The notes: generated by a model not told the origin, from the letters alone. 64,000 nt of DNA from an uncultured Gemmatimonadales bacterium (GCA_964619975.1 CAZUIY010000042.1:278-64277), one strand, 5' to 3'. Positions 1 to 64,000 are shown, numbered from the stretch's first letter. Translations and numbers: made by a program.

Positions 1-1
1 A

Positions 2-3000
2 TCACCCCAGCAAGTCAACGTCGAATCGGTAATCAAGGCGATTACCAAAAGGTGGAAGAACGCGCCTGATGTGGTCATCGTTCAAGACATGAACGACAAG
101 GCTATTCCTGAAGCAGTCCGGGCGGAGAATCAGCGCCAGCTATCGCAAGGGGCAATCGGGGAACCTGAAGGCTTCATTGCCGGGAACAAGGTTTATCTCG
201 TCGCATCACAGCTAAAGACTCCCGGCGATGTGACTCGGGTACTCCTGCATGAATCGCTTGGACACTTCGGCCTTCGCGGAGTATTCGGCCAGGAACTAAA
301 CACCGTATTGAAACAGGTCGCCGCGCTGCGACGCAGTGACATAGAAGCCAAGGCCAAGCAGTACGGGCTTGATGTTTCCAAGGAAACGGACCGGCTGATA
401 GCGGCAGAAGAAGTGCTAGCTGAGTTATCTCAAAATCAACCAAGGAATAACTTGGTTCAACGCGCCATAGCTGTAATACGCGCATGGCTGCGTAACAACA
501 TTCCAGGCTTTGAAAACCTGAAGCTATCCGACGCGGAAATAATAGAAGGAATCCTGAACCCCGCAAGGCGGTTCGTGCAGAAAGGAAGGGTGATAAACGC
601 GCGAGCTAAAGAGGCGGCATTTTCCCGAAATCAAACGACGACGACAGCGTTTAAGAAGTGGTTTGAGGATAGCAAGGTGGTTGATGCGAACGGGAAGCCC
701 ATGATTATGTACCATGGCACAAGTTCCGACTTTGCCAAGTTCGATAACGATGTTGATACCAAGGGCTCCATGGGTAACAGCGTCGGGTTCTATTTCTCAG
801 CCTCGATAGAAGCCGCGAACGACTACGGCAGCGAAGGGCAAGTAATGCCTGTTTATCTGAGAATTAAAAACCCCCTACGTATTGATAGTCGCATGGTCAA
901 CCACGATGCGATTGGAGATATGATCGGACTCAACTTGAGTAAAGTTTACGGAGCACCAGAGCGAGCGGAGGTGTATTGGTTCTTTAAGAACGGTGGGGCG
1001 TACGACGGAAGGAAGGAGGCGCGTGTTGGGGATGCAGTAGTTGCCGCAGCTAAAGCAAAAGGTTACGACGGCGCTATTTTCAAAGAGCGCATTGGCGGCA
1101 AGACAGTAGACGTTTATCTTGCCTTCGATGCGGAACAAATCAAGTCCGCAACCGGCAATCAAGGCACGTTCGACCCAAACAATCCCGATATTCGCTTTTC
1201 CCGTACGACACCCTCATCAACCCCCACCCCTTTCCGCGAACGCTTCGACAAAATCGCAGACTCCCTGATCTATAACTTTCAAGACCGCTTCAAGCCCTTA
1301 AAGGACATTCAAAAGCGCGCTGGTCCCGTATCCGAGGACGCGGACGCCGCCCTTGCCGAAGAACGCTATTCCGGCACGGTACGCGCTCGCCTCGATACCT
1401 TTAACGACTCCATGCGTGATCCTCTCCTGAAGGCCATCCATGACTCGGGGGTGGAATACGAGAAAGTCGAGGAATATCTCCATGCCCTGCACGCGCCCAG
1501 CCGCAACCGGGCAATGCAGGAAATCAATCCGACCGAATCCGAACTCAAGGCACAAGTAGCTGCACTGGAAAAGCAGCGCGATACGCTGACCAATGATCCG
1601 GGCGTGAAGCGCTTCCTCGATCAACGCAGAAAACTGCGGCAGGCCGAGGCCGACATTGAGGACGGCATAGCGGACGAATCGCTGGCGTCCGTCATCAGAA
1701 ACGAGATAGCCAGATTGAGGAAAGAGCGCAGCGTCAAGGACTACGCCGATACGATAGACCGGCTCAAAGCCTTGCGCCTCGTCAAACCCTTTGAAGGTGA
1801 CAACACAGCCCTGTCGGGCATGAGCGATGCGAAAGCAAGGCAGGTGATTGCCGAGGCTGAGAAGAGCGGCAAACGTGCGGCTCTGGATAAAATCTCCGGG
1901 ATCATCAACCAGATCACGGCCAGGACACGGGAAATCTACGTGGAAGGCGGACTGGAAAAGGCGGACGCTATCGAAGCATGGAACCGCAAATATGAAAACT
2001 ATGTGCCGCTGCACCGGGAGGAAGTCTCCGGAAACGGCATGCCAAGAGTGGGGCAGGGCTTCAACATCAAGGGCAAAGAGTCCAAACGGGCGACCGGATC
2101 AACCAGGGAAGTTCAGAACATTCTTGCGCATGTGGTGGCGCAGCATGAAGCCGCAATCGTCCGGTCTGAAAAGGCAAGGGTGGATCGCGCCTTGTTCCAG
2201 TTCGCCACACTGAATCCAGACCCGTCGCTTTGGACACTGGACAATGCGCCGATGCTGAGAACAGTCGATCCTGTCTCAGGATTCGTGGTGGAGCGAGTCG
2301 ATCCCACATACAAGAACCGGGATGAAGTGCTGACGCTCAAGATCGACGGTGAAGAGCATACCATCACCTTCAACGAGCAGAATCAGGAAGCGATGAGGCT
2401 TGCCGCTTCCATGAAGAACCTCTCATCGACCGACATGGGCGAAGTCACCCAAATGGTGGGGCGCTTCACCCGGTTCCTTGCCACGATGAACACCACGGCC
2501 AATCCGGTATTCGTGGCGCGGAACTTCATGCGTGACTTGCAAACCGCCTACGTCAACCTGTCCGATACCGAGATTGCCGGGAAGAAGCGGGAAGTGTTCC
2601 GGAACATTCCGGACGCCATCCGGGGCATGTGGAATCTGTCCCGAGGAAAGAAGAGTTCCAAATGGGCCAAGTACGCGCAGGAGTTCAAGGCCGCAGGTGG
2701 ACAAACCGGATGGATGGAACATTACAAGGACATTGGCACTCGCGCAGATGCTTTGAAGAAGGAACTTGCCACCATGCAACCAGGCAAGCTCAACGCATCG
2801 CGCCGTGCGCTAAAGTCGTGGTGGGGAATCATCGAGGACGCCAACAACGCAGTCGAGAACGGGGCGCGGCTGTCTGCCTATGTCGCTGCCAGGCAGTCTG
2901 GACTATCAGAAGGCAAGGCCGCATCGATTGCCAAGAACTTGACCGTCAACTTCAATGCCCGTGGGGCCAAGTCTGTCGAACTCAATGCCTGGTTCATGTT

Positions 3001-4078
3001 CATGAACGCTTCCATTCAGGGAAGTGCTCGACTCATAAAGGCCATGAACAGCCGTCAGGTGCGGAAGATCGTGGCTGGGGTGGTGCTGTCCGGTTTCCTG
3101 ATGGATATACTCGCCCGGGCAATGGCAGGGGATGACGATGAGGACGGAGAGAACGATTACGACCAACTGCCAGAACACACCAAGGCCATGAACTTTGTTT
3201 TCATGGTGGACGGGCAACCAGTCACAATCCCGATGCCCTATGGCTACAACTTCTTTGCCAGCGCGGGACGCAAAATGTCGGAAATGATTTTCCGCGAGAA
3301 CTACAGCCCGGTCAGGAGTGCTGTGGATCTGGCTGCTGTATTCGTGGATGCCTTCAGCCCGACCGGACAGGCGGGATCGGCGCTTCAATTCGTGGCCCCA
3401 ACAATTGCCGACCCTGCTGTTCAATGGGCGGAAAACAAGAACTTCGCGGGCAACCCACTGAGGCGCGAACAGCATCCTTTCGGTGTGCCGAATCCCGAAT
3501 ACCAGATGGGATTCAAATCGACCAGCGCTCCGGCGAAATGGCTGGCCGAATCGTTGAACACCGCATCGGGTGGGAACGAGGTTCGGCCGGGATTCGTCAA
3601 CGTCAATCCTGCATTCTTTGACTTCGCAGTATCGAGCATTGCCGGAGGCGCGGGAAGAACCTATCTGCAAGTGGCAAGCGGCCCCTTGAAAGCTACCGGG
3701 GATGACAAGATACAGGCGCGTGAGGTTCCATTCCTCAATATCTTCGTGGGCGCCCGTCCTGAATATCAGACGGAACGCAAATACTTCGAGGCCGTGCGCG
3801 AAGTCGAAATGGCACAGAAGGAACTGAAGACCTACCGGGAAAAGGGCGACATTGACATGGTGCGCCGCATCCGGGAAGAACACCGGGCAGCGCTGCGGCT
3901 CATCGAAGCGGAGAAGGAAGCCAAGCGCATTCTGTCAAACCTTCGACGCCGTGACCTGGCGCTTGACAAGGTGGGACTTGAAAACAAGGGACAGTTGAGG
4001 CGGGAGATAGAAGAGAAGCGCCGGGAAGTCATGGCGCGGTTCAACAGGCAATACCGGGAAGCAATGAACGTACAGTAG
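2..4078 (+). CDS. 3' part (at least 1358 codons) of a giant multidomain polyvalent-type protein; 5' end outside the window
   Basis: Frame 2 is open from nt 2, with no stop before the tabulated M at 71. It carries the motif VLLHESLGHFGLRGVFG (HEx3H, metallopeptidase-like). An ART-like block follows: MIMYHGTSSDFAKFD..SVGFYFSASIEAANDYG..PVYLRIKNPL. After that come about 950 aa of helical sequence with hydrophobic segments and a basic coiled-coil tail. All overlapping antisense ORFs are much shorter. Confidence 0.8.
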   Translation, partial: SPQQVNVESVIKAITKRWKNAPDVVIVQDMNDKAIPEAVRAENQRQLSQGAIGEPEGFIAGNKVYLVASQLKTPGDVTRVLLHESLGHFGLRGVFGQELNTVLKQVAALRRSDIEAKAKQYGLDVSKETDRLIAAEEVLAELSQNQPRNNLVQRAIAVIRAWLRNNIPGFENLKLSDAEIIEGILNPARRFVQKGRVINARAKEAAFSRNQTTTTAFKKWFEDSKVVDANGKPMIMYHGTSSDFAKFDNDVDTKGSMGNSVGFYFSASIEAANDYGSEGQVMPVYLRIKNPLRIDSRMVNHDAIGDMIGLNLSKVYGAPERAEVYWFFKNGGAYDGRKEARVGDAVVAAAKAKGYDGAIFKERIGGKTVDVYLAFDAEQIKSATGNQGTFDPNNPDIRFSRTTPSSTPTPFRERFDKIADSLIYNFQDRFKPLKDIQKRAGPVSEDADAALAEERYSGTVRARLDTFNDSMRDPLLKAIHDSGVEYEKVEEYLHALHAPSRNRAMQEINPTESELKAQVAALEKQRDTLTNDPGVKRFLDQRRKLRQAEADIEDGIADESLASVIRNEIARLRKERSVKDYADTIDRLKALRLVKPFEGDNTALSGMSDAKARQVIAEAEKSGKRAALDKISGIINQITARTREIYVEGGLEKADAIEAWNRKYENYVPLHREEVSGNGMPRVGQGFNIKGKESKRATGSTREVQNILAHVVAQHEAAIVRSEKARVDRALFQFATLNPDPSLWTLDNAPMLRTVDPVSGFVVERVDPTYKNRDEVLTLKIDGEEHTITFNEQNQEAMRLAASMKNLSSTDMGEVTQMVGRFTRFLATMNTTANPVFVARNFMRDLQTAYVNLSDTEIAGKKREVFRNIPDAIRGMWNLSRGKKSSKWAKYAQEFKAAGGQTGWMEHYKDIGTRADALKKELATMQPGKLNASRRALKSWWGIIEDANNAVENGARLSAYVAARQSGLSEGKAASIAKNLTVNFNARGAKSVELNAWFMFMNASIQGSARLIKAMNSRQVRKIVAGVVLSGFLMDILARAMAGDDDEDGENDYDQLPEHTKAMNFVFMVDGQPVTIPMPYGYNFFASAGRKMSEMIFRENYSPVRSAVDLAAVFVDAFSPTGQAGSALQFVAPTIADPAVQWAENKNFAGNPLRREQHPFGVPNPEYQMGFKSTSAPAKWLAESLNTASGGNEVRPGFVNVNPAFFDFAVSSIAGGAGRTYLQVASGPLKATGDDKIQAREVPFLNIFVGARPEYQTERKYFEAVREVEMAQKELKTYREKGDIDMVRRIREEHRAALRLIEAEKEAKRILSNLRRRDLALDKVGLENKGQLRREIEEKRREVMARFNRQYREAMNVQ

Positions 4079-4082
4079 AAGC

Positions 4083-4161
4083 AAGGCAAGTTATCCACCG
4101 GCTCCGATATTTTGCGTCCTTTTCACTTGACGCCTATCTTCGCCCGAGGATAACTTGCCTT
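4083..4161. repeat. Perfect 14-bp inverted repeat (AAGGCAAGTTATCC at 4083-4096, GGATAACTTGCCTT at 4148-4161) in the convergent gap between the giant gene and traM
   Basis: Read directly from the sequence. The 51-bp spacer contains a smaller GCGTC..GACGC hairpin. Confidence 0.9.
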
Positions 4162-4212
4162 TGAAGACTGACTTGAACGAGATTGCCCACACCACAAGGG
4201 CGTGGACAACTC

Positions 4213-4632
4213 TCAGATGATTGCAAGCGCTGCGCCAAGAGTCACCACGGCGCAGACTGCCGATACCGACGCGGCAACCATGGTCCCGCGATACGCCTTC
4301 ACGATCCGGTTTGCCACCGGGTCGAGTTCCCTCAGAAGATTCGCCTGGGCTTCTTCCATTGCAGCTGTCACAGCAAAGTTCACCTGCTCTGCAACATAAT
4401 CCGCAGCATCCGTAATCACCCTTCCGGCGGTTTCCTTTGCCGTCACCGAACTCTTCTGAAGCGCATTCTCTACGCGCTTGAAATGCGTTTCACTGATCGA
4501 TTCCAGGTTCCTTATCATCTGTTCCAGAACAATATCGTTCACCCGCATGGAGTCCAGGAGAGGATCGTCATCTTCAATAACTCTTCCGTACTTTACGGAC
4601 GCCTCTTTCTTCACTTCCTCAAGATCAAGCAT
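4213..4632 (-). CDS. traM: TraM-like conjugal transfer protein (last gene of the traK-L-M leader operon)
   Basis: It sits directly downstream of traL. It is 139 aa, helical, with a C-terminal TM segment (VSAVCAVVTLGAALAII). The call rests on synteny and architecture only. Confidence 0.55.
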   Translation of the reverse strand: MLDLEEVKKEASVKYGRVIEDDDPLLDSMRVNDIVLEQMIRNLESISETHFKRVENALQKSSVTAKETAGRVITDAADYVAEQVNFAVTAAMEEAQANLLRELDPVANRIVKAYRGTMVAASVSAVCAVVTLGAALAII

Positions 4633-4641
4633 GGCATCCTC

Positions 4642-5367
4642 CTATTTGATCACTTCATCAAGCTGCTTGAAGATGGAATCACGAACCCTGAATAGGCGTG
4701 ATCGAATCATCTGATTGAAATCTGGAGAAGACAATGCTTCCTCGAACGTGAGCCACGAACCAAGCATTTTCTTCATGGCGTCACCGTGCATGGTCCCGGC
4801 TTCATGTTCCAGGCGAACGATCCCGTGAACGCGCTCTTTGTTTTTTTTATACGCCTTCATTTCCTCGAAATGTTTTCCATCAGAGGTAATCTGGCCCGCA
4901 TGGGCGTTAAGCCACACGACGATCCTGGCTGATGCCGGCATGTGGTTTGCCACGGCATTGAATCCTGAGAGGGTAGGGACCAAATCTTGGTCACCTTTTA
5001 TGATCGTGTGGATATAAACTTGCTTTCCGCTTTGCTGGATCATGTTGATAATGTCGTTCTCTATGATGTACGACGTGAGCGCTACGAAACTGGATGCGCC
5101 GTTATCAATCACGAAGTTTGAATCCTCATCAATGATCTGCATGATCATTTCGTCAAACCTCTCTGGATCAATCTTGTGATCACTTCCAACCACTTCCAAC
5201 CGGCGGGCTTTGAGCGCTTTGTATCCTGCAAGAGTGGCATTGATCGGATCAATATCAATTGGCACAACCGGCCTTGTGTTGCTCATCAAATATTGGACGA
5301 CCAAGGACGAAAGCAAAGACTTTCCAACCCCTCCTTTTCCTTGCAGCGTGAAATGTGCCTGTTTCAT
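4642..5367 (-). CDS. traL: TraL-like P-loop ATPase (ParA/MinD fold)
   Basis: An internal start MKQAHFTLQGKGGVGKS carries a deviant Walker A and is preceded by an AGGAG SD at 5371-5375. The tabulated 358-aa form would overlap traK. Confidence 0.85.
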   Translation of the reverse strand: MKQAHFTLQGKGGVGKSLLSSLVVQYLMSNTRPVVPIDIDPINATLAGYKALKARRLEVVGSDHKIDPERFDEMIMQIIDEDSNFVIDNGASSFVALTSYIIENDIINMIQQSGKQVYIHTIIKGDQDLVPTLSGFNAVANHMPASARIVVWLNAHAGQITSDGKHFEEMKAYKKNKERVHGIVRLEHEAGTMHGDAMKKMLGSWLTFEEALSSPDFNQMIRSRLFRVRDSIFKQLDEVIK

Positions 5368-5392
5368 TTTCTCCTTACTCCTTGTGGTGGTT

Positions 5393-5761
5393 TCACAATA
5401 AATCGTTGTCATCTTCAGACAGGGATTCTTCAAACCTGCTTCCCCGTTTCTTTCCTTCTGATTCTTCTCCCCTGCCGCTGTAAGTTTCAACTGGTTTCTT
5501 CGGTACGGCAACATCAACTTTCTCGGTTTCGACGGCAACAGGTTCTCTCTCAGCTGGCTCAACGCCTGCCTTGCTCCGGATGTATTTATTAACGTAGTTA
5601 ACGAACTGGCTGTAACCGATACCAAGTTCCTTCTGATAATCCTCATATATCGCTGCCATTGTATATCCAGCATTGAACCTCTCCTTGATGGCGTCCTGAC
5701 GTGCCAGGAACGCCACACGTCCGGAGCCGATACGCTTATTTTTTGGTGGCTTCATCGACAA
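5393..5761 (-). CDS. traK: TraK-like oriT-binding relaxosome protein
   Basis: It is the first gene diverging from the oriT region. The N-terminal block RVAFLARQDAIKERFNAGYTMAAIYEDY..FVNYVNKYIRSK resembles IncP TraK, and the C-terminal tail is acidic. Confidence 0.65.
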   Translation of the reverse strand: MSMKPPKNKRIGSGRVAFLARQDAIKERFNAGYTMAAIYEDYQKELGIGYSQFVNYVNKYIRSKAGVEPAEREPVAVETEKVDVAVPKKPVETYSGRGEESEGKKRGSRFEESLSEDDNDLL

Positions 5762-6048
5762 TATTCCTCCGAAATTTCCTCAGACTGCCAACTCATTATA
5801 TTGCATAATTCTGTTCATTTCTATGGAATACAGTGGAAGAGTAAAAAAAAGAGTATAAAACTGTGTATTGCATGGCAGGATTTCATAATTCTGTATATAA
5901 TTACAGTGATTTCTACTGAAATCTTTTTTAGTTCGTAACAGATAGTAAGGCAAGATGTGTATTGTGGGCCTACGCGCTACGCGCTTCTGCCACAATACGA
6001 GAAAATCGGTCACTTATTCGCCTTTCGTCTCAACGGAGGAAACCGACT
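5762..6048. promoter_or_regulatory. oriT: Putative oriT and divergent promoter region
   Basis: This AT-rich non-coding gap lies between the divergent traK and traJ-side operons. The minus strand reads GAAATCCTG/CCATG (rc of 5875-5881), matching the IncP nick core ATCCTG/C. An 11-bp direct repeat CATAATTCTGT occurs at 5804-5814 and 5884-5894, exactly 80 bp apart. TACAGTG occurs at 5829-5835 and 5902-5908. A 9-bp-arm inverted repeat GTATTGTGG/CCACAATAC lies at 5959-5967 and 5990-5998. Confidence 0.55.
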
Positions 6049-6180
6049 ATGAACAACCAAGCCATCTATGAATATGAACTTGAGCAGGCACAATTCCTGA
6101 TGCAACAGTACGAGGGTGGTGTGCCGGAACCAACCGAAGAAACCAAGCCGATACTTGAACAATACGAGGAGGAAGAATGA
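6049..6180 (+). CDS. Small acidic hypothetical protein (43 aa)
   Basis: ATG at 6049 is preceded by GGAGGAAA. The product ends in YEEEE-stop, with an ATGA overlap onto the next ORF. Confidence 0.4.
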   Translation: MNNQAIYEYELEQAQFLMQQYEGGVPEPTEETKPILEQYEEEE

Positions 6181-6383
6181 GAGACAGGGAAGAAGACGCG
6201 CCCGAACCCTCAGTAGCCGATGAACCAATCGTTCGATTAAGGGTTGAGGGTGGGCATGTGTACGCTGACTTTCTCCGACTCAATAATCTTCCTGATGGAA
6301 CTCTGCTTTACGCTCGGAATGGGACAAAGGAAAAGGACGCTTTCGAGAAATTTAAGGCAATGAAGAGGGCGGCAAAACCATGA
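6177..6383 (+). CDS. Hypothetical protein (68 aa)
   Basis: It is translationally coupled (ATGA) at both ends. Confidence 0.5.
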   Translation: MRDREEDAPEPSVADEPIVRLRVEGGHVYADFLRLNNLPDGTLLYARNGTKEKDAFEKFKAMKRAAKP

Positions 6384-6544
6384 AACAGTTCACGGTAAAG
6401 ATGAAATGCCTGGTTTACAAAACGGCAACATTTGAATGCGAAAGCATAGAAGATGCCGAGGGATTTGCTTTGGAGTACGCCACCCGCGTAACGAAATCCG
6501 AAATGTCAGATTGGGAAGTCTTGAGCGTGGAGGAAAACAAATGA
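6380..6544 (+). CDS. Hypothetical protein (54 aa, below the ORF-table cutoff)
   Basis: Read by hand as MKQFTVKMKCLVYKTATFECESIEDAEGFALEYATRVTKSEMSDWEVLSVEENK. It has ATGA overlaps at both ends. Confidence 0.45.
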   Translation: MKQFTVKMKCLVYKTATFECESIEDAEGFALEYATRVTKSEMSDWEVLSVEENK

Positions 6545-6837
6545 GCCACACAGAAGGAAAATTGAAGGCAGACGGTGCGTTGATCAAAAATCAAAATGGG
6601 GAAATGGTGGCGGCCACGGAGGGGAGCCAGAGTAATCACGAAGCCAACGCCCGCCGCCTTGTGGCTTGCTGGAATGCGCTTCTGCCATTCACCACTGAGC
6701 AGGTCGAGAATGGAATTGATCTAGTGAAGTTGATGCAAGAACGTGACGAACTACTGGCGACTTTGCGCGATTTGTATCTGAACGGGAATGCGGAAAACGT
6801 TGAATCCATTCTCGCCAAATACGAGGAAGAAGAATGA
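6541..6837 (+). CDS. Hypothetical small phage-type protein (98 aa)
   Basis: Internal start MSHTEGKLKADG. The motif HEANARRLVACWNALLPF is reminiscent of common small phage proteins. The product ends in YEEEE-stop with an ATGA overlap. Confidence 0.5.
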   Translation: MSHTEGKLKADGALIKNQNGEMVAATEGSQSNHEANARRLVACWNALLPFTTEQVENGIDLVKLMQERDELLATLRDLYLNGNAENVESILAKYEEEE

Positions 6838-7277
6838 ACGACAAAGAAAAACCAGAGATTGATGCGCTCAAGGAGGAAATTGAGCTATGCCACAAAAAGC
6901 TAGAAGGACTGGATGAGCTTATTGATGCGCTCAAGGCAGAACTGCATGGAATGGAGGAGCTGTATCGGAAAAAAGTAGACGACTGCGCGGAAATGGAAGT
7001 GAGCATGCACCGCCAGATCGAGAAGATCAAGGCCGAGAACAAAAAACTCTGCGAAGTAAAACTCGCAGCCGCCCCGACACCGCCGGCGCAGGATGAGGCG
7101 ACTATTTACCAAGTTCGTCTTGTAGGAGAAACTGGAAACAAAGGGCCGTGGACAGATGCGGATAAAGAAATGTACGAGCAGTGCGATTGGAGCGGGTGGG
7201 AGAGAAGGGCGCTCTACACCCGCCCCCAATCCGACAAACTACGGAAGGCGTCGGGAAGTGGCCCGTCCTCGCGGTAA
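6834..7277 (+). CDS. Coiled-coil hypothetical protein (147 aa)
   Basis: The N-terminal half is heptad-rich. It overlaps the predicted traJ start by 20 nt. Confidence 0.5.
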   Translation: MNDKEKPEIDALKEEIELCHKKLEGLDELIDALKAELHGMEELYRKKVDDCAEMEVSMHRQIEKIKAENKKLCEVKLAAAPTPPAQDEATIYQVRLVGETGNKGPWTDADKEMYEQCDWSGWERRALYTRPQSDKLRKASGSGPSSR

Positions 7278-7536
7278 ACCCATCAAGGTTTTCGTGACCG
7301 AGGAAGAGAAGGCCGAGATTGTCCGCCGGGCTGATTCAGCAAATCTCTCCCTTTCTTCCTACCTTCGCGCAGCCGGGATGAATCACTCTGTCCGCTCCGT
7401 CATGGACGTTTGCGCCGTCACCGAACTTGCCCGGATACACAGCGAACTCGGGCGGATCGCGGAAGAGAAGACCATGGAAGAACTGCGGGACATTCAAACG
7501 ATGATCCATGGGTTGATGGGAAGAGCAATAAGGTGA
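7258..7536 (+). CDS. traJ: TraJ-like (MobC family) ribbon-helix-helix relaxosome accessory protein
   Basis: GTG start at 7258. The block PIKVFVTEEEKAEIVRRADSANLSLSSYLRAAG..VTELARIHSELGRIA parallels RP4 TraJ. Its stop overlaps the relaxase start (GTGA). Confidence 0.75.
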   Translation: MARPRGKPIKVFVTEEEKAEIVRRADSANLSLSSYLRAAGMNHSVRSVMDVCAVTELARIHSELGRIAEEKTMEELRDIQTMIHGLMGRAIR

Positions 7537-9161
7537 TAGCCAAGCGCATTACTTCCAAAGCCGCAACTTCCCGCGTAGCTCGACTGGTGCGGTATGTGGT
7601 AGCGGCAGAAGGCAGTATTGACCCTAGAAGCTGGACCCGCACCGCGGATTATGTTCTCGCCAGCAAGACGAACGAGCGCGGGGAAAAGGTCGGGGGCGTG
7701 AGGGTGACAAACTGCAACACTGACGATCCCGCCGTTGCCACTACCCTGATTGAAGCAACACAGGCGGCGAACACCAGATCAAAGACGGACAAGACCTATC
7801 ACCTTGTTTTTTCCTTTCCTCCCGGCGAAGAGCCGGACATAAAGATCCTCCACAAGATCGAAGATGAACTTGTCGCATCTATCGGCTATTCCGAACACCA
7901 GCGTATCAGCGCAGTTCACATCGACACGGATCACCTTCATGTCCACGTCGCTATCAACAAGATACACCCCAAAGGGTTCCAGAATATTGAACCATACTTC
8001 GACAAGCTGAAGCTCATGGAAGCATGCGAGCGGATTGAGATTGAATACGGGCTGACTCGCACGAATCACGGCTTGACCGGCGAGAGAACCAAGGCAGAGA
8101 GGTTATCCGAGAAGCAGGCGAATGCCGAGATACATTCCGGGATTGAGTCGCTTGCCGGGTTTGTCGCCCGCAACCTGGCCGACTCCATGCGGAAATCTGA
8201 ATCATGGGAAGCGCTTCATGAAGTGCTGGGACATGAAGGATTGAGCATAAGGAAGCGCGGGGCGGGGCTTGTCATCGGCAGCGGGGAGCAATGGGTACGT
8301 GCCAGCCAATGCGGTCGCGAGTTTTCCCTGAAGGCACTCACCGACAGGCTGGGCGAATACCAGGCGCCAGCAAAGAAAACCCGCAAGCGGTATAAGAACA
8401 GGCCGATTCAGGGAACCGAGTTCCTCAACGCCACCGTTCTTTATGAGCGCTACCAGGCAGACAGGCAGGGGCGAGTCCAGGCAAGGCAAAACGGCATGAA
8501 CCAGATCAGGAATGAGACCGCGCACTTGAATGCCCAACTTCAACGTTGGCGCATCGCACAGCGAATGCTTGTCAAGGCAACCATGAAAGGGGCAGCAAGA
8601 CGCACTGCGCTCAAGATGATCCGGTTGCAAACGACCGTGGCCCGGAACAACAACCGTAGCGCCATGAACCGGAAACGCCAGAATCTTGTAGCTGCAACGG
8701 CCACGGGTTCATGGCTGCAATGGCTGTCCATTCAGGCGCAGGCAGGCAACACGGAAGCACTCGAAGTGCTGCGGCATAGGGTGCGCAAGGAACAGGTGGG
8801 CGACACCTTGACCGCCGAAGGCAAGGCGGCAACCGAAATACTGAAAGACGCCATCATCAACCGGCACGGACACGCCACATACCGGGCAAACGATGGCGGC
8901 GTGGTAATCGACCGGGCAAACCAGATTCAATCTCTGCGGACGACACGGGGAGCAGCCGAGATTGCATTGGAACTTGCATCGAAGCGGTTCACGGGGAAAG
9001 CGCTAATCGTGGAAGGGCAAGAGACATTCAAGCGGGAAGTGGCGATGCTGGCTGGCGCACAAGGACTTAAGGTTCGATTCTCGGATAAAGGAATGGAGCA
9101 AATAAGGCAGGCATCTATGAAGCCAAGGACGCGCGACAGATCAAAAGGAATGGAGCTATGA
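7533..9161 (+). CDS. traI: MOBP-type relaxase (TraI-like)
   Basis: GTG start VIAKRI. VRVTNC, KTYHLVFSF and the histidine triad HIDTDHLHVHVAINKIHP are present. The N-terminal 250 aa run collinear with RP4 TraI as I recall it. Confidence 0.9.
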   Translation: MIAKRITSKAATSRVARLVRYVVAAEGSIDPRSWTRTADYVLASKTNERGEKVGGVRVTNCNTDDPAVATTLIEATQAANTRSKTDKTYHLVFSFPPGEEPDIKILHKIEDELVASIGYSEHQRISAVHIDTDHLHVHVAINKIHPKGFQNIEPYFDKLKLMEACERIEIEYGLTRTNHGLTGERTKAERLSEKQANAEIHSGIESLAGFVARNLADSMRKSESWEALHEVLGHEGLSIRKRGAGLVIGSGEQWVRASQCGREFSLKALTDRLGEYQAPAKKTRKRYKNRPIQGTEFLNATVLYERYQADRQGRVQARQNGMNQIRNETAHLNAQLQRWRIAQRMLVKATMKGAARRTALKMIRLQTTVARNNNRSAMNRKRQNLVAATATGSWLQWLSIQAQAGNTEALEVLRHRVRKEQVGDTLTAEGKAATEILKDAIINRHGHATYRANDGGVVIDRANQIQSLRTTRGAAEIALELASKRFTGKALIVEGQETFKREVAMLAGAQGLKVRFSDKGMEQIRQASMKPRTRDRSKGMEL

Positions 9162-35204: not shown

Positions 35205-37211
35205 TCAGAAACAGAGGTCAAACTGACCGACAGGGGTTTCAGCCAAAACAGGAAAAACAAGGCTCATTAGAACCGTGTTTACGCTGGTTCCTGACTCCTT
35301 GAACGTATCGGCTGGTAACACTTCCCAGCTTCCGCCTGCTGCCTCAACTATGGGCCGCAGCTGCGCGTTCTGGCGCGGCCCATTGGCGCATATTGCAACC
35401 AGTCGGCCTCCAGGCTTGAGCATGTCTATGGCTTTCGTGATGTGCTTTATGTCCACTGCGTTTTCAAAGGGCGGGTTCATGATTACCGCATCGAACTTGC
35501 CCAAATCGCCATTGCATTCCAGAAAGTCTGCCTGCTTTACCTCTCCTGCCAATCCTGACTTTTCGATGAGCGAAACGAGGGAATGATTTATTTCCACGGC
35601 CACAACATCAAGCGCGGTTTGACGTGCCGGGACGAAAGGGACCACTCCGGGCAAGGCTTCAAGAATCCGGCCTGTTCCAGCGCTTGGCTCCAGTACTCTG
35701 TTCCCTATTTCAAGCTGTGCCATGTCAACCATCCGGGCGGCAAGGTCAACCGGAGTAGGAAACAATTGAGGAGCGGAAACAACCTTAACGCCTCCGTTCT
35801 TTAGCTGGTCTTTCATTGCCTTGAATGCTGCCTCCTCGTGATCTGGTTCGCGCATCTTTACGGGTGCCGGGGCGGGAATTTCCTTTTTCACTTCAAACTT
35901 GACTGGCTCCGTTGCTTCTGGCGCGGGACGGTTAACCAATTTTGCATCTGTGATGAAAATCTGCGCTTGTTTGTAGCTTCCACCAGGCACAAATCCGATC
36001 CGATAACGATAGGCTCCATGTTCCTCTGTAGCCTGGACTCTCCTGATTACCTTGTAATCTGAATGTTTCCGTTTCCATTCTTCAGAAGTCATTTCTATGA
36101 ATCCTTCGCCGGGGATATTGACGATAGGGGCGAGCTTCGTAACTTTCTCCACCTTTGCGGCTTCTTCCTCGGTGGGGGCGCGGTAGTCTTTTACCTCTTC
36201 AATCCCGCGAACAGGGACATATCTGCAATTTGTTGTGACGCTGTTAACCTTTCCTCCGGTCTTGTTTACGCGTATAACAACCATCCATTCACCACGAACC
36301 AAAACACGGCCACCGGGTTTAATGTCAAATTTGGAATCCGCTAATCCGCCTTGCTCGACGAGCATTGCTTTTTCATACGCAATACGGTTGTTAAAATGGT
36401 TTAGCCAGCGTTCATGATGGGCTATGATGCGCGGATAGTATTTCTTTGCGTGCTCCACTACTTCTTCAACGGTACGTGGCGCATATGAGTTAGGGTATGA
36501 TCCGCTTAGGACGTCATAAGCGGATGGGGACATAATTAAGTCTTTCCGGTCCCCTTCTTTTCTAGGCAATGGGAGCCGCGAATATCCGGCAATAGCTAAC
36601 GCTTGCTCATGCGTCAAGTTCTCTCTGCTCCATAGCTTCAGATCCCGCTCTGCTTCTTTTATGTATTTTTCCTGCTTGCGCTTATCGGATTCCAAGCCCT
36701 TGATCCGGCGTGCGCGAACGTCCGGGCGCTCCTTGTACTTGGCGGCGCGGATTGCACCAGCTGCGCGGTATGTCCAATACTTGGACGTTTCCCACATCTT
36801 GACGGCTTTTTTCATGCCGTTTTCAATGCGTTCTGCGTCTTTTCTGGCGCGTTTCTCGCTGTGGTGGCCTACCAGGATAGGCTGACCGAGGGGGATATTG
36901 TCTGCGATGCCTGAGACAGCTTCGCGTACGCGGGTGGCGTCAGTGGCGCGTTTCTCGCTGTATTCCTCGAAACGGTCTGAGCGTTCTTCGGCGCGTTCGA
37001 CTAGGCTTTTGTCCTCGTCTTCGATTTCTCCGCACAATTCAATCAGGAGGTCTTCGCGGGCCGGGGTCCACATGGGGGCTACAAACAATTCTTGCTTTGG
37101 TGCCCACTTGAAACCAGCAGCTTTTACGCGGTCATATGTTTCGCGGTCAAGCCTGTTTGTTGAATAAAGCCGCAGCTTGTTGTCATCCGGCGAATATGTT
37201 GCGTTCATCAT
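35205..37211 (-). CDS. Large fusion protein: DUF3560-like N-terminal region plus a C-terminal gamma-class N6-adenine DNA methyltransferase
   Basis: The start MMNATY follows an AAGGAGA SD. Motif I reads VLEPSAGTGRIL and motif IV reads IMNPPFE. The N-terminus YSPDDNKLRLYSTNRLDRETYDRVKAAGFKWAP resembles plasmid and phage DUF3560 proteins. Confidence 0.8.
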   Translation of the reverse strand: MMNATYSPDDNKLRLYSTNRLDRETYDRVKAAGFKWAPKQELFVAPMWTPAREDLLIELCGEIEDEDKSLVERAEERSDRFEEYSEKRATDATRVREAVSGIADNIPLGQPILVGHHSEKRARKDAERIENGMKKAVKMWETSKYWTYRAAGAIRAAKYKERPDVRARRIKGLESDKRKQEKYIKEAERDLKLWSRENLTHEQALAIAGYSRLPLPRKEGDRKDLIMSPSAYDVLSGSYPNSYAPRTVEEVVEHAKKYYPRIIAHHERWLNHFNNRIAYEKAMLVEQGGLADSKFDIKPGGRVLVRGEWMVVIRVNKTGGKVNSVTTNCRYVPVRGIEEVKDYRAPTEEEAAKVEKVTKLAPIVNIPGEGFIEMTSEEWKRKHSDYKVIRRVQATEEHGAYRYRIGFVPGGSYKQAQIFITDAKLVNRPAPEATEPVKFEVKKEIPAPAPVKMREPDHEEAAFKAMKDQLKNGGVKVVSAPQLFPTPVDLAARMVDMAQLEIGNRVLEPSAGTGRILEALPGVVPFVPARQTALDVVAVEINHSLVSLIEKSGLAGEVKQADFLECNGDLGKFDAVIMNPPFENAVDIKHITKAIDMLKPGGRLVAICANGPRQNAQLRPIVEAAGGSWEVLPADTFKESGTSVNTVLMSLVFPVLAETPVGQFDLCF

Positions 37212-37484
37212 TTTTGATTCTCCTTGTGGTTTAGCTACATGAAGCACACTCTTTGGAATGCGCTTTAGGTAACTCGTACCTTGTTACATCTGCCAGCCTG
37301 AAGCGGCAGTTCCCCGCAAGCCCATTAGTGCGCTTGCTCCCTTGGACCTAGTAGGGTTGTCAACCCAGGCTTAACCCTGGTAGACCCTTTAAGGGACCGA
37401 CTAGCAATCCCCGACTAGGTATCGACTTTTGCGTTATTTCGCGCCCGGCTCGCATCAACCGTGTTTCGTTACTGCATGGTTCAC

Positions 37485-55799: not shown

Positions 55800-55813
55800 T
55801 ATGGAGACATGGA

Positions 55814-56197
55814 ATGGCTAAATACGCTCACGCCGATGTGCTGGACAACGGCCTGAATCAACTCAAGAACAGCGCAATCAGGATGCTGTTGATCAAGGCA
55901 TACGCTGCGGCGGACAACTACGCAACCGTTATCGGAAACGCAATCTGCACGGTAACGGTTGCCTCCGCTGACTTCACCCTGTCAGGCGCGGACGGGGCGG
56001 CGCGTGTCGTCACAATCGCCGCGAAAAGCGGGACCGCATCCGCTGGCTCCGGGGCGTCGCCTGATCTACACATTGCATTCACCGACAACGTGAGCAAGGT
56101 GCTGCTGGTCACGGATGAAACCACGAATCAGGTCATCACCAGCGGGAACACCGTCAACTTCCCCAGCCTGACATATACCAGCAGTCAACCTGTATAA
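55814..56197 (+). CDS. Hypothetical virion protein (127 aa)
   Basis: It has a GGAGA SD. Confidence 0.5.
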   Translation: MAKYAHADVLDNGLNQLKNSAIRMLLIKAYAAADNYATVIGNAICTVTVASADFTLSGADGAARVVTIAAKSGTASAGSGASPDLHIAFTDNVSKVLLVTDETTNQVITSGNTVNFPSLTYTSSQPV

Positions 56198-59713: not shown

Positions 59714-60402
59714 TGCGCGTACTCGCATTCTCCGGCGGCAAGGATTCCATGGCATGCCTTCATCTCTGCAAGCGCAGCATCGACTGTGCAATCTATGTTG
59801 ACACCGGCAAATCCTATCCAGAAACGCAAATGATGGTGAAGTACGCGGAAACAATCGTGCCGTTCGTAATCGTTCATAGCGATCAAGAAGAACAAAACAG
59901 AGTCAACGGACTGCCATCCGATGTTGTTCCAATCGATTACACAGCATTGGGTCAAGTGATAAGCGGCGCAAAGCCTGTCATGATCCAGAGTTATCTGGAT
60001 TGCCACTTCCAAAACATCAGTTATCCCCTGTTTACCAAGGCCAAAGAACTCGGGGCGACTCATATTCTATACGGACAAAGGAGCAGTGATTCGCATCAGG
60101 CACCAGCCAGGAATGGCGACATAATCGACGAGATTGTGAGACTGCATCCGGTCGAAGGCTGGTCGGATCAGGACGTGCTTGACTACCTGCAAACCGTGAT
60201 GGACGTGCCAGAGCATTACTACCTCGGGCATTCATCAATGGACTGTTACGACTGCACGGCATTCAGGAATGAAACGCAGGATCGGATGGAATACACGAAG
60301 GAAAGATATCCGAATTTCCACAGAAAATATCAGGAACGAATGGACATGATCAGGCAGGCGCTTGAGATGAGCGGATACTTGGAGAAAAGACATGGCACTT
60401 AA
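59713..60402 (+). CDS. PAPS-reductase-family PP-loop ATP pyrophosphatase
   Basis: The N-terminal PP-loop reads LAFSGGKDSMACLHL. It is 229 aa. Confidence 0.78.
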   Translation: MRVLAFSGGKDSMACLHLCKRSIDCAIYVDTGKSYPETQMMVKYAETIVPFVIVHSDQEEQNRVNGLPSDVVPIDYTALGQVISGAKPVMIQSYLDCHFQNISYPLFTKAKELGATHILYGQRSSDSHQAPARNGDIIDEIVRLHPVEGWSDQDVLDYLQTVMDVPEHYYLGHSSMDCYDCTAFRNETQDRMEYTKERYPNFHRKYQERMDMIRQALEMSGYLEKRHGT

Positions 60403-62278
60403 CGCGGTTGGCGGTCTCGCGCAGGGATTGGCGCAAGGAATCGACATGGGCATGCGCTGGCACGGACTGAACCAGAGTATCGGGCTTCAAAAACAGCGGC
60501 AGGAACGGCTTGAGAAACGAGATGAGCGCGACGCCGAAATCCATGAAATGAAGAAAGATCAGTTTGCGTCGGAGAAGGAAATCAGGGATCGCAGGAACAA
60601 CGCGCTCAATGAAATTGCTCAATATACTCAGTCGATCATGGGCGGAGGCCCGCAGCCACAACAGCAGCCGAATATCAACGTGGCCGGACCCATTCCCGCT
60701 GGAGGGATTGGTGGCGCAACACAAATGACACCCGACAGCGGGAGTCTTGCGCCTGCCGCGTCACAAGCGGCACAGGCCCAGGCTCCACAAGCGCAGGAAC
60801 AATCCATTCCGCCTGGAAAGGTACTGGAACGCGGCATGGTAACGGGCATGTACTCCCCGAAAATGCTGACCGATATTGCCAGCATATGGGCCAAGCACGG
60901 CTTGCAGGAAGAGGGCATCAAATACATGAACCAGGCATATGAGGCCGAGAAGCGCGGCGGGGTTCGCGCATCAATGGCACTCATGCAGAACAACCCAGCC
61001 GCGGCTGCCAAAGCGTTGCAGGAAGGCGGAGTGGAGCTCGAAGGCGTGCCGGTCAAGGTCAATGATGATCCGAATGACTTTCGCTGGAAGCTCAACATCG
61101 CGGGACAGGGCGAGACAACGGCGGACGTGCGGCAATGGCTACGCTCCACCATGGACCCGGAAGAATTCTTCAGGGCTGAAGACAGAAGGATCAAGGACGA
61201 GCGGGAAGCGGCCATGGACGAGCGCAAGCAATCGTTCGCGGAACAGAAAGGCCGAGCGGAACTCGGTCTTGATGCGGCAAAGACGCAGGCGCAGATCGGA
61301 TACCTGAGAAGCCGCAGCCAGCTTGCAGAGGCCAACGCGGACAAGGCTGACCGCTGGGAGCCGGGGGCGCTGCGGCCAACCCGATCAAGCGAATCCCAGA
61401 TCAATACCGCGCTGACACGCCGGGAAAAGGCGTTCGACCGGGTGAGCATGGTAAAGGACGAATTTGGCGGCAAGCCCGAGGTCGACCCCATGAGGCGGCA
61501 AGTGCTGGACAGCGCAGCCAACCAGTATCAGGCATTCCTTGAGGATTTACGCGGGGAAGAACTGGACGCGCGGGATCACCACAAGTTTACTGACGTGATG
61601 GTGAGTTTTCCCGTGAACGGTACGCCGCAGCAGATAGCGAAATGGGAAGAGTCGCAACTGTTCCCTCGCTTCGGGCTGAAGAGAAAAGCAAAGGCGGCAA
61701 CCAAGGAAGATACTCCGCGCCAAGTCACTGCACCAGCTGGCGGACTCGCGCCTGCTTCAACACGCGCACCGGCTCCAAGAACAGGAGCGCTCTCATCCCT
61801 TGACCGTGACCGTGCAAGCGCGGCACTGAACAAGGAAATGGAAGGCGTACAGCGTGCGCTGAAAACACCTAACCTCAGCACCGAACAGCGCAAGACACTC
61901 TCATTGCAGGCGCAGGAAATCGCCAAGCGGCGGGATGCGCTGAAGAGAAAGAGAGGCCAATCATCTGACCCAGAATCAGAGCCTGTCCCTGATTACGGAT
62001 TACGACGAGATGGCAGCAAAAAAGGTACTGGATGGCTTGGCATCCAAAAAACCAAATCTGGTAGCGACATGACGGAATACACCGTTGGTTTGGAGATAAA
62101 CGGAAATGAGGTGGATGTTCCTACACTGGTGCCAACTTTGAATCAAAAAGAAATTGACTATCTGAAAACAGAGCCAGACCTGCGAGAAAGGAGCCAAATC
62201 AACGATTCAATCATAAGAAAAGCAAAAGAACATGCAGAGAAACGAATGCGAGAAGGAAAAAGCGTTTTCGCAGATTAA
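60392..62278 (+). CDS. Coiled-coil putative internal virion (ejection) protein, 628 aa
   Basis: It is charged and helical, with a Q/A/P-rich linker. It lies immediately before the giant ORF. Confidence 0.45.
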   Translation: MALNAVGGLAQGLAQGIDMGMRWHGLNQSIGLQKQRQERLEKRDERDAEIHEMKKDQFASEKEIRDRRNNALNEIAQYTQSIMGGGPQPQQQPNINVAGPIPAGGIGGATQMTPDSGSLAPAASQAAQAQAPQAQEQSIPPGKVLERGMVTGMYSPKMLTDIASIWAKHGLQEEGIKYMNQAYEAEKRGGVRASMALMQNNPAAAAKALQEGGVELEGVPVKVNDDPNDFRWKLNIAGQGETTADVRQWLRSTMDPEEFFRAEDRRIKDEREAAMDERKQSFAEQKGRAELGLDAAKTQAQIGYLRSRSQLAEANADKADRWEPGALRPTRSSESQINTALTRREKAFDRVSMVKDEFGGKPEVDPMRRQVLDSAANQYQAFLEDLRGEELDARDHHKFTDVMVSFPVNGTPQQIAKWEESQLFPRFGLKRKAKAATKEDTPRQVTAPAGGLAPASTRAPAPRTGALSSLDRDRASAALNKEMEGVQRALKTPNLSTEQRKTLSLQAQEIAKRRDALKRKRGQSSDPESEPVPDYGLRRDGSKKGTGWLGIQKTKSGSDMTEYTVGLEINGNEVDVPTLVPTLNQKEIDYLKTEPDLRERSQINDSIIRKAKEHAEKRMREGKSVFAD

Positions 62279-62287: not shown

Positions 62288-64000
62288 ATGGATGAATTAA
62301 CCCTCGAAGAAGATGCTGGCGAACTTGTCGCCCCTCGTCCAAGACGCCAGAGGATGGACGCGCCCATGCCGCGCTCTCGGCCGCGCATGATCGAACTGGA
62401 CGACGACGCTGAAATGCGGCTGCGAGAGATAGCGCAGTCGATGCAGTCCTTCCAGCAGACTGCTCCTGCGGAAACCGCGCAGCCCGAGAAACCTCTCGGC
62501 CTCATGGGAACGATCCGGGAGGGCGCGAAAGGAACATTACGGGCGTTGGGCGCTACCGTGGACACGGCGCAAGGAGATGCGCAGGAAGTGGTGCGCGCCG
62601 CGCAGGATCAGGCAGACGCACCCAAAGACCCTGACCTTGAACGCTTCTATGCGCACATCGAGGAACGCAAGGCAGCGTTGGGAGAAGACCCGTCGCTTTG
62701 GGAAGGCATCAAGGCCGTAGGCGGGGCGGCAATAGATAACCCCCGCGGATTCGGCCTGATGATCGCGGAACAGTTGCCGAACTCGGGCGCAGCGCTGGGA
62801 GCGGCGGGGGCTGGCGCTTTGGCCGGATCATTCGCCGGACCCGTTGGCTCTGCTATCGGTGGATTGGCGGGGCTGGCGGCTGCGAACATCGGCTTGGAAA
62901 CCGGTCACAAGGCGCTGGAAGCGGCCGCCGATGGAGACTTCACGCCGAAAGAACAAAGCCGGGTGCGGCGCGAGGGATTAATCAAGGGCGGCGTCATTAC
63001 CGGGGTGGATGCGGCAACGTTGGGCGTGACCAAGTTCATCACCAACACCAGCCGCCGTGCCGTGGAACGCGCCACGATGAAGACGCTGGCCGATAACGGC
63101 GTGGACGTGACCAATGCGGCAGCACGTCGGGCTGCAATGGAAACACCAGAGATTGCCGAAGCCGTCACAGCAGCGCAAAGCATGGCACGTTCGGGAGCGG
63201 AAAGGCTTGGCAACCGGATAGCGCAGACCGGCGGGGCGATAGCGCTTGAAACCATCGGGGAGGGCGCGGGGGAATATCTCGGGGAACTAGCGGCGACCGG
63301 GCGCGCAAATGCGGTAGACGCCGTAATCGAGGGTTTCGCCGGATTCGGTACCAGCATCGGGGAAATAGCAACAGTCGGAGCGTTGAACCGGCGCGGATTG
63401 AACCGATTGCTGGACAGCCAGGAAGAAGCGCAGACACAGGCCGAAAAACAGACGCAGGACACCGGGGTGGAGCATGAGGCCATGCCATCTCCTACCGAGC
63501 CGGAAAAGTTCGTGGCCGTGCCGAAAGCGCGCTCTGTCTCCGGAATAGAGTTAACACGCGACGAGGAAGGAAACCTCAAGCCGGTCACGCCCGGCTCCAC
63601 GCAGACGGAGTTCAACCTTGCCAACCGGCCGGGTTTTCAGCAGGACGCTGAAACACGCAGGAGGGCGCGGGAAGAGGAACGCACGCGGGAGGAAGCGTAC
63701 AGGAAGAACCCCATAGTCGTGTCAAAGGACATGCCGCGCTCCATTGCTGGCCGTCCCGCAGCTGATCTCACGAATGAAGCGCTGGAATACACGGCGAAGA
63801 ACGGCGGCGCACGCGCCCGCCAGATCGCCATGGACGAGATTGCACGACGCAAGGCGCAAGGCACTCCTGTAGTCACGCCAGAGAAACCGGCGGAAAAGGT
63901 AAAAAGAATCATTGCTACCGGCGCGGAGAAGGCTCAGGAGGACGCCAGGAAGAATTCGATACTTCCATCCGTCCCGACTGCTCCGATTCAACCAGCGACT
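62288..64000 (+). CDS. 5' part (571 codons, open at the window edge) of a giant virion/polyvalent-type protein; not in the supplied ORF table
   Basis: I translated it by hand from the ATG at 62288 and found no stop through 64000, where the last codon ends. It has a Gly/Ala-rich hydrophobic segment (GAALGAAGAGALAGSFAGPVGSAIGGLAGLAAANIG). The antisense ORFs listed here are shadows. Confidence 0.7.
   Translation, partial: MDELTLEEDAGELVAPRPRRQRMDAPMPRSRPRMIELDDDAEMRLREIAQSMQSFQQTAPAETAQPEKPLGLMGTIREGAKGTLRALGATVDTAQGDAQEVVRAAQDQADAPKDPDLERFYAHIEERKAALGEDPSLWEGIKAVGGAAIDNPRGFGLMIAEQLPNSGAALGAAGAGALAGSFAGPVGSAIGGLAGLAAANIGLETGHKALEAAADGDFTPKEQSRVRREGLIKGGVITGVDAATLGVTKFITNTSRRAVERATMKTLADNGVDVTNAAARRAAMETPEIAEAVTAAQSMARSGAERLGNRIAQTGGAIALETIGEGAGEYLGELAATGRANAVDAVIEGFAGFGTSIGEIATVGALNRRGLNRLLDSQEEAQTQAEKQTQDTGVEHEAMPSPTEPEKFVAVPKARSVSGIELTRDEEGNLKPVTPGSTQTEFNLANRPGFQQDAETRRRAREEERTREEAYRKNPIVVSKDMPRSIAGRPAADLTNEALEYTAKNGGARARQIAMDEIARRKAQGTPVVTPEKPAEKVKRIIATGAEKAQEDARKNSILPSVPTAPIQPAT

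Follow-up and report, generated by a model that had tools for sequence, protein, structure and literature searches.

At one end of a 64,000-nucleotide stretch of DNA from an uncultured Gemmatimonadales bacterium (GCA_964619975.1 CAZUIY010000042.1:278-64277, hereafter the window, at its full length), the gene for a giant protein ends close to the origin of transfer (oriT) of an element that carries both a podophage module and a conjugation system. Which of the two routes, infection or conjugation, does this protein serve? An initial annotation, made from the sequence alone, described a polyvalent protein with metallopeptidase-like and ADP-ribosyltransferase (ART)-like domains and suggested that it might be delivered by either route. 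The gene is best explained as encoding a phage-type polyvalent protein, the last gene of a 933W/Bcep22-like podophage late operon, and its product is probably packed in the virion and ejected with the DNA. Within the protein, a conserved N-terminal region and a C-terminal module of ~950 residues, the latter with LPD38 and one transmembrane-like helix, flank a variable centre. This centre consists of a ddrB-ParB domain, a helical region, a domain with an HEXXXH motif and an ART domain, and parts of it have been exchanged at FSR tripeptides with Ser/Thr/Pro linkers. In window coordinates, the two parts of the gene and the features encoded in them are as follows.

62288..64000, plus strand: N-terminal part of the giant gene, its first 571 codons, with a Gly/Ala-rich hydrophobic stretch at residues 160-205
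2..4078, plus strand: C-terminal part of the giant gene, 1,358 codons and the stop, residues 1087-2444 of the full protein
2..601, plus strand: HEXXXH domain, candidate zincin-like peptidase, with H83-E84-x3-H88 at nucleotides 248-265 and AAEEVLA at nucleotides 401-421
614..631, plus strand: AAFSRN junction between the HEXXXH domain and the ART cassette, with FSR at full-protein residue 1293
683..1171, plus strand: ART-PolyVal ADP-ribosyltransferase domain, with the H in YHGT (nucleotides 710-721), the Y in GFYFS (785-799) and the D in GYDG (1061-1072)
1190..1207, plus strand: IRFSRT junction and Ser/Thr/Pro linker directly before the C-terminal module, with FSR at full-protein residue 1485 and a homology breakpoint at 1483-1494
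1235..4075, plus strand: conserved C-terminal module of ~950 residues, the virion/ejection module common to 933W L0134, Sp5 ORF80, phi24B gp47 and Bcep22-like giant proteins
3068..3124, plus strand: lone transmembrane-like hydrophobic segment IVAGVVLSGFLMDILARAM, followed by an acidic run (window residues 1023-1041, Kyte-Doolittle 1.86), just before LPD38
3149..3736, plus strand: LPD38 domain (PF18857), window residues 1050-1245, E = 7.5e-42

One gene across both window ends

Frame 2 is open from nucleotide 2, as the initial annotation had read it, to a stop at 4076-4078, which gives 1,358 codons. This open reading frame (ORF) is incomplete and runs off the left edge of the window. An independent assembly, L001, reached by looking up the neighbouring 628-residue protein (60392-62278), supplies the rest: it is 100% identical to window positions 53843-64000, continues with 1,544 nucleotides that are absent from the window and then runs into window positions 1-6734. 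Both window ends fall within one gene, and the 1,544-nucleotide gap encodes residues 572-1086, including ddrB-ParB. The complete gene (62288-64000, the gap and 1-4078) is a single ORF in L001, with 7,335 nucleotides and 2,444 residues, and full-protein residue numbers are window residue numbers plus 1086. Because L001 joins the window's end to its start, the source would be a circle of ~65.5 kb or a circularly permuted molecule.

The N-terminal region of the giant protein is 69-75% identical to the N-termini of its relatives. A near-identity DNA search of window positions 1-8000 against plasmids and phages returned a single 82-nucleotide match, to a Nitrosospira plasmid, and otherwise nothing useful, and an NCBIfam scan gave zero matches.

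Domains of a phage-type polyvalent protein

A Pfam scan of the full protein at E values up to 1 found three families only: LPD38, ART-PolyVal and ddrB-ParB. All three exceed their Pfam cut-offs, and with them the initial assignment to the polyvalent proteins, ART-like domain included, stands. ART-PolyVal (PF18760) is matched over its full profile length at window residues 228-390 (E = 1.4e-31, 110.6 bits against a cut-off of 31.2; residues 1314-1476 of the full protein, E = 2.9e-31). LPD38 aligns over profile positions 1-189 of 189 with 144 bits against a cut-off of 27 (residues 2136-2331 of the full protein, E = 1.5e-41). The ddrB-ParB domain (residues 590-712, E = 4.6e-28) lies wholly within the 1,544 nucleotides missing from the window.

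The motifs quoted in the initial annotation were all located in the ORF, with GFYFS at window residue 262, PVYLRIKNPL at 283 and GYDGAIFKE at 354. The distance between the HEx3H motif and KPMIMYHGTSSDFAKFD, estimated there at ~170 residues, measures 152, with KPMIMYHGTSSDFAKFD beginning at residue 232. An active site of H (strand 1), Y (strand 2) and D (strand 5) has been reported for this ART clade (Iyer, Burroughs, Anand, de Souza and Aravind 2017, PMC5512222, hereafter Iyer et al.). When ten ART copies from relatives are aligned, YHG almost always keeps its His and G-x-DG its Asp; the aromatic position, which is FYF in the giant protein, is Y, F or H in the other aligned homologues. Judged from its sequence, the ART call is sound, with the H-Y-D configuration in place.

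With ddrB-ParB, ART-PolyVal, the HEXXXH domain and LPD38 in 2,444 residues, the protein combines at least two unrelated effector domains in one giant polypeptide, the defining trait of a polyvalent protein. According to Iyer et al., ddrB-ParB and LPD38 are restricted to phage-type polyvalent proteins, and ART domains are known in phage-type as well as conjugative-type ones. The giant protein carries both of the phage-only domains, each above its cut-off, and the full-protein scan found none of the domains that the same authors list as conjugative-only (primase, RadC and others). It shares with the proteins that they describe the union of unrelated enzyme domains in one polypeptide, the H-Y-D ART, the HEXXXH variant and the phage-type markers; it differs from them in belonging to an element that bears a type IV secretion system (T4SS), with its gene abutting an oriT leader operon.

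Phage P1 offers a further parallel in its capsid-packaged anti-defence Dar proteins DarB and DdrB, the second of which is the prototype of ddrB-ParB and is proteolytically processed. In P1, however, these are separate proteins, and the giant protein has neither methyltransferase nor helicase. The Pfam scan of the full protein looked in vain for the DNA methyltransferase and helicase of DarB type, which rules out the label 'DarB-like' for it. Among the relatives, P0055 does have a helicase.

A C-terminal module shared with virion proteins

The C-terminal module falls in the PHROGs giant-phage-protein families phrog_14770 (8e-242) and phrog_616. A tblastn search matched 385 of 50,697 phage records, the best matches being Shiga toxin (Stx)-converting phages (window residues 416-1358, 31.6% identity, E = 2e-102). 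In phage 933W, the matching gene is L0134, which spans 8.4 kb and stands last in the late region. Its counterpart in phage Sp5, ORF80 (2,793 residues), is one of nine essential late genes, the deletion of which leaves DNA-filled heads without tails (PMC5155283). In phi24B, gp47 (2,811 residues, with LPD5, LPD1, MuF-C and LPD38) is abundant in virions by proteomics and invisible in the cryo-EM map; its authors propose that it is a capsid-packaged ejection protein (bioRxiv 10.64898/2026.04.10.717836). The Bcep22-like phage JC1 encodes gp69 (4,515 residues, LPD38 at 4195-4401), which yielded 51 unique peptides from purified virions.

By C-terminal homology and by its place at the end of the late region, the giant gene belongs with L0134, Sp5 ORF80 and phi24B gp47. 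All share a homologous module of ~940 residues that includes LPD38, each is the last large gene of its late region, and 933W is further matched by the window's portal, capsid and nozzle-like genes. The Stx phage proteins differ in their centre, where they have LPD5, LPD1 and MuF-C in place of ddrB-ParB, HEXXXH and ART; their phages integrate and have no conjugation genes, unlike the window element. The 'DarB-like' proteins of the Bcep22-like phages (Lessievirus), Bcep22 gp75 and JC1 gp69, likewise end in LPD38. The gene order of JC1 is close to that of the window: an acetyltransferase, an unknown gene, a phosphoadenosine phosphosulfate (PAPS) reductase and two more genes, including one for a 510-residue virion protein, lead up to the giant gene. 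JC1 gp69 nevertheless has a lytic transglycosylase, a methyltransferase and a helicase, none of which occurs in the window protein, which is about half its size.

An AlphaFold2 model of the module (predicted local distance difference test, pLDDT, 79.9) is largely helical with two small sheets, and neither Foldseek nor sequence and profile searches of PDB chains found a structural neighbour for it. The initial annotation had described some 950 residues of helical sequence with hydrophobic segments. The length and the mostly helical fold are borne out by the model; of hydrophobic segments, only one is clearly transmembrane-like.

An exchangeable centre

A profile search with the C-terminal module gathered 84 relatives, the closest of which keep the module at 60-80% identity. 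Their other Pfam content varies and includes ddrB-ParB, ART, RadC, a Strawberry-notch-type helicase, SLT, GGDEF, LPD1/3/5 and MuF-C. In pairwise comparison, P0039 and P0040 match the giant protein at residues 1-1315 and 1483-2444 and are without 1316-1482, the ART cassette; P0044 matches residues 1-998 and 1494-2444; and P0055, P0059 and P0060 match only from about residue 1075 on. On these alignments, the ART domain is a clean presence/absence cassette among the relatives.

The breakpoints of this mosaic fall at an FSR tripeptide and a Ser/Thr/Pro-rich linker, at junctions that delimit the HEXXXH domain and the ART. FSR occurs at full-protein residues 1078, 1293 and 1485, three times against 0.34 expected, and the motif is present in 13 close relatives, 11 of which have their last FSR ~956-975 residues from the C-terminus. 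The FSR junctions may be recombination-tolerant linkers, cleavage sites of the HEXXXH domain, or both. As cassette boundaries, they define precise constructs for probing whether the HEXXXH domain processes its own protein and how each cassette affects host defences.

An alternative is that the protein is mainly structural, with conserved ends that build or measure the tail or core and central 'enzymes' that are inconsequential passengers or inactive. The tailless heads of the Sp5 ORF80 deletion are in keeping with this, as is a centre that is freely swapped or lost among relatives the ends of which stay 60-80% identical. Yet highly diverse proteins strictly retain the H and D of the ART and, in the HEXXXH domain, the H, E, H and EE, a pattern that argues for activity, and turnover of cassettes is the usual signature of effectors in an arms race. 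We regard a mainly structural or assembly role as unlikely.

A candidate peptidase of the HEXXXH type

The motif VLLHESLGHFGLRGVFG, at window residues 80-96 (nucleotides 239-289), is spaced H-E-x-x-x-H (H83, H88); the initial annotation was right in reading it as HEx3H rather than canonical HExxH. A profile built from 20 homologues of the domain retrieved 5,827 cluster representatives with E no higher than 1e-3, of which 727 had E no higher than 1e-30. The best matches are nearly all internal to proteins of 2,000-5,000 residues, some of which hold up to seven copies. The pattern HExLGHxGLRGxFG, in which H, E, G and H do not vary, is present in 146 of 147 instances, and a pair of glutamates follows ~50 residues downstream of the HEXXXH motif in 146 of 146.

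The AlphaFold2 model of the domain (pLDDT 84.9) consists of a helix, three strands, a long helix bearing the motif (H74-109) and a helix bearing the EE pair (H128-145). The motif on one helix and a Glu on a later one are the arrangement of a zincin-like peptidase, here with HEXXXH spacing. The same order of elements has been given for the zincin core of polyvalent-protein peptidases, among which there is an HEXXXH subset with a probable helix bend (Iyer et al. 2017, PMC5512222). In BFVD, other phage polyvalent proteins are predicted to have the same fold (E 4e-9 to 1e-6, template modelling score 0.63-0.73), and a SprT-like viral model matches it weakly (E = 0.37). Motif, conservation and model together make the domain a probable metallopeptidase of the HEXXXH subset. 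It is a common domain, with ~5,800 cluster representatives, for which there is no solved structure and for which the Pfam scan reported no metallopeptidase family.

The end of a phage late operon

The giant gene is the last of a plus-strand block with terminase, portal, capsid, adaptor, fibre, GNAT and PAPS reductase genes, and it thereby stands among late and virion genes, as genes of phage-type polyvalent proteins do. The plus strand of the window holds a complete podophage structural set: an Sf6-type small terminase, a large terminase, a P22-type portal, an N4-gp56/933W-type capsid protein, an SU10-type adaptor, fibres and a 678-residue 'internal virion protein' (phrog_511). Phage-type recombination and replication genes are also present in the window (single-stranded DNA-binding protein, RecT, YqaJ and an O-like initiator). 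Directly upstream of the giant gene lies a partner gene.

60392..62278, plus strand: upstream partner gene, 628 residues, no family, with its stop 9 nucleotides before the giant-gene start

In three relatives of the same hybrid kind (L005, L009 and L010, independent assemblies of 65-68 kb), a gene for 500-550 residues occupies this place; in JC1, it is occupied by the gene for the virion protein gp68.

Ahead of the partner and giant genes, positions 58282-60400 (plus strand) hold a GNAT acetyltransferase, a gene for ~270 residues and the PAPS reductase, in a JC1-like order. An ORF called on the minus strand at 58940-59854 is probably spurious.

The giant gene also closes the late operon where there is no T4SS nearby. 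On a 57.7-kb Comamonas plasmid, it is followed by replication and partition genes; in 933W, by accessory genes; in a prophage of a Nitrosovibrio chromosome, by another prophage; and on a 56-kb phage contig, by recombination and replication genes.

The junction with the transfer block

Beyond the stop codon of the giant gene, the window changes from phage to transfer functions.

4083..4161, no strand: 14-nucleotide perfect inverted repeat, arms at 4083-4096 (AAGGCAAGTTATCC) and 4148-4161 (GGATAACTTGCCTT) with a 51-nucleotide loop, in the gap where the giant gene and the traM-like gene converge
4213-4632, minus strand: traM-like gene, Activator-TraM E = 0.0012, below the Pfam cut-off
4642-5367, minus strand: traL-like P-loop gene, CbiA E = 2.3e-06
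5393-5755, minus strand: traK-like gene, DUF5338 E = 6.4e-09
5925..6005, minus strand: oriT core, inverted repeat 5959-5967/5990-5998, 8 nucleotides, then ATCTTG/CC (a slash within a sequence marks the nick), with the predicted nick at 5951/5950
7156-7536, plus strand: NikA-like accessory protein
7410-9161, plus strand: MOBP-type relaxase of MobA/VirD2 type with TraI_middle and a C-terminal LPD7 (E = 7.4e-15)

The inverted repeat at 4083-4161 could be a bidirectional terminator or a protein-binding site. The three leader-operon-like genes that follow (4213..5755) match traK-L-M of IncP plasmids in order and sizes and are convergent with the giant gene. The remaining transfer genes are a TraG/VirD4 coupling protein, a TraF-type S26 peptidase, an SLT gene and, on the minus strand, trbB-C-D-E-J-(K)-L-F-G-H-I in Ti/IncP order. 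The relaxase-LPD7 arrangement is also present in the hybrid relatives.

The inverted repeat of oriT sits in the gap at 5756-6049. For comparison, BLAST with the 74-nucleotide RP4 nick region found it 100% identical in IncP plasmids; in pBS228, it has traJ/traI upstream on the other strand and traK-L-M downstream on its own. The core common to the RP4 region, the minus strand of the window and the relative L005 is GCGNGTRGGCCYAC...AC..ATCYTG/CC, with differing flanks. We take the IncP cut to fall within the ATCCTG/C core, as in RP4, and on this likeness the nick is predicted on the minus strand between 5951 and 5950.

Two other positions for the nick were rejected. ATCCTGC at 5875-5881 (minus strand) is not conserved in L005, and its pattern is common in the window (28 occurrences against 16.5 expected). 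A plus-strand nick in the hairpin loop (CTTCTG/CC) conflicts with the IncP layout, in which, on the strand leading into traK, the nick lies 3' of the repeat.

The block resembles the Tra1 core of IncP (RP4) in its traJ-traI/oriT/traK-L-M layout and strand relations, its oriT core, its MobA/VirD2 relaxase with TraI_middle and its NikA-like protein. It differs in having several small ORFs between oriT and the relaxase and in the neighbour of traM, which is a phage late gene instead of plasmid DNA; the TraM match itself is below the Pfam cut-off. Divergent sigma-70-like promoter matches (10/12 each) at 5795-5901, one into the traK-like operon and one toward the relaxase, flank the oriT region as in IncP, although their count is no higher than in shuffled sequence.

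With the predicted minus-strand nick, the transferred strand would run through traK, traL and traM and reach the stop of the giant gene after ~1.9 kb. To this extent, the order of entry that was first proposed, traK-L-M and then the 3' end of the giant gene, holds by homology to RP4. It raises the possibility that the gene acts as a leading-region gene, with no transfer of protein and with early transcription in transconjugants that blunts their defences. The minus transferred strand is indeed the template of the plus-strand giant gene, an orientation that matches anti-defence genes transcribable from the incoming strand (Samuel et al. 2024, PMC11541004). However, the 5' end of the giant gene enters 7.3 kb further in, the intervening traK-L-M genes are oppositely oriented, and the 9 nucleotides to the upstream ORF leave no room for a promoter of its own, a single-strand promoter included. 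The gene also stands at the same operon end in non-conjugative relatives, and we consider the leading-region explanation improbable.

The suggestion that the giant protein travels by either route, and is thus also exported through the element's own T4SS, starts from the same neighbourhood. The element does carry a complete trb-type T4SS, a type IV coupling protein (T4CP), a relaxase and oriT; all hybrid relatives examined have the giant gene next to the leader operon; and ART domains occur in both types of polyvalent protein. Delivery through the T4SS nevertheless finds no support, because ddrB-ParB and LPD38 are phage-only markers. The giant protein has no conjugative-only domain and its gene no place in a transfer operon: it is convergent with traM, and it is the relaxase that carries LPD7 instead. 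Being in a phage late operon, it is expected to be expressed at commitment to lysis, and its conserved C-terminus is common to phages without a T4SS. Nor is the suggestion supported by the place of the gene, which ends a phage late operon, with a 9-nucleotide gap upstream, and keeps this position in relatives lacking a T4SS; we hold such export to be very improbable.

As the giant gene occupies the same position in these T4SS-less relatives, its closeness to oriT is best read as a module junction. The simplest reading is a seam at which an IncP/Ti-like transfer block (traK-L-M, oriT, relaxase, T4CP and trb genes) was joined to the end of a phage late operon, with the giant protein carried in the virion. 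A relaxase travels with the DNA in conjugation. The one encoded here carries its own polyvalent-associated LPD7, so that each route may have its own escort, and the hybrid element allows the route specificity of escorts to be asked directly, the relaxase with LPD7 standing for conjugation and the giant protein for infection.

Proposed action of the protein

As a phage-type polyvalent protein, and by analogy with its homologues, the giant protein would be packed inside the capsid and leave through the tail at infection. Its C-terminal module would be needed for virion or tail function and perhaps for a conduit across the envelope, and the central enzymes would act on host targets in the opening minutes: the ART, through its H-Y-D site, by ADP-ribosylating host factors, and the ParB-like domain on nucleic acid or nucleotides. 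More tentatively, the HEXXXH domain could be a zinc peptidase, by which the polyprotein would be cut into units, perhaps at the FSR junctions.

Several points weigh against this account. Packaging, ejection, ART activity and proteolysis are all steps that we infer for the giant protein. No metallopeptidase family in Pfam-A matched at E up to 1, whether the window part, residues 1-233 or the full protein was scanned; hhalign found no relation between the HEXXXH domain and P1 DdrB; Foldseek found no zincin in the PDB for the domain model, its best E being 0.38; and a profile search of PDB sequences with the domain returned nothing. What stands of the metallopeptidase-like domain in the initial annotation is thus the invariant motif with its EE pair and the HEXXXH variant described in Iyer et al. 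2017; a Pfam family, or a solved zincin related by fold or sequence, does not back it. The conduit is a borrowed hypothesis for a module that has no structural neighbour, and the no-tail phenotype of Sp5 is explained by a role in structure or assembly no less well than by an ejected effector. Finally, the position and strand of the giant gene are compatible with leading-region logic, the transferred strand being its template, which leaves room for a role linked to conjugation.

A phage and a conjugation system on one element

On a circle of ~65.5 kb, the element unites a 933W/Bcep22-like podophage module and an IncP/Ti-like conjugation system (oriT, NikA, MOBP relaxase, T4CP, TraF and trbB-I), both complete. 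The junction of the giant gene with convergent traM-L-K, oriT and the relaxase recurs in three further assemblies, of 66.9 kb, 68.3 kb and 65.3 kb, and the giant protein of the 68.3-kb assembly was seen on 16 contigs. A chimera of assembly is ruled out by four independent assemblies with the giant gene/traM-L-K junction. The Pfam scans of the window ORFs reported no tyrosine integrase, only a small serine recombinase at 39279-39866.

According to a 2025 review, no conjugative phage-plasmid has been found, and a 2025 survey found conjugation domains to be merely sporadic in putative phage-plasmids. Relatives of the element's VirB4 are limited to four unannotated fragments among the 50,697 phage records, and all of the plasmids in PLSDB with the same capsid type (15 of 15) are typed as non-mobilizable. 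The giant protein is a further member of a known, barely tested family; it is the carrier element that is unusual.

In such an element, particles and conjugation could both be functional and the giant gene could serve both, its product injected from virions and, in addition, expressed early in transconjugants or exported through the T4SS. We give this combination a slim chance. If true, one swappable anti-defence cassette would protect the DNA by whichever way it travels.

Two other proteins of the window are of note. A 680-residue protein encoded at 35205-37247 (minus strand) has a DUF3560 (E = 6.3e-36) and a methyltransferase domain, and its C-terminal part falls within PHROGs giant-phage-protein families, one of which, phrog_10691, is likewise matched by the giant protein. 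Directly following the portal gene, positions 44021-45289 (plus strand) encode a 422-residue protein with long Ala/Thr/Asn-rich repeats (ATNATNANYATNANYATSAG...) and no family match. The G+C content of the window is 54%, and the nearest named relatives (P0012, P0056 and P0061) are from Nitrosovibrio and Nitrosospira. The host is probably an ammonia-oxidising betaproteobacterium.

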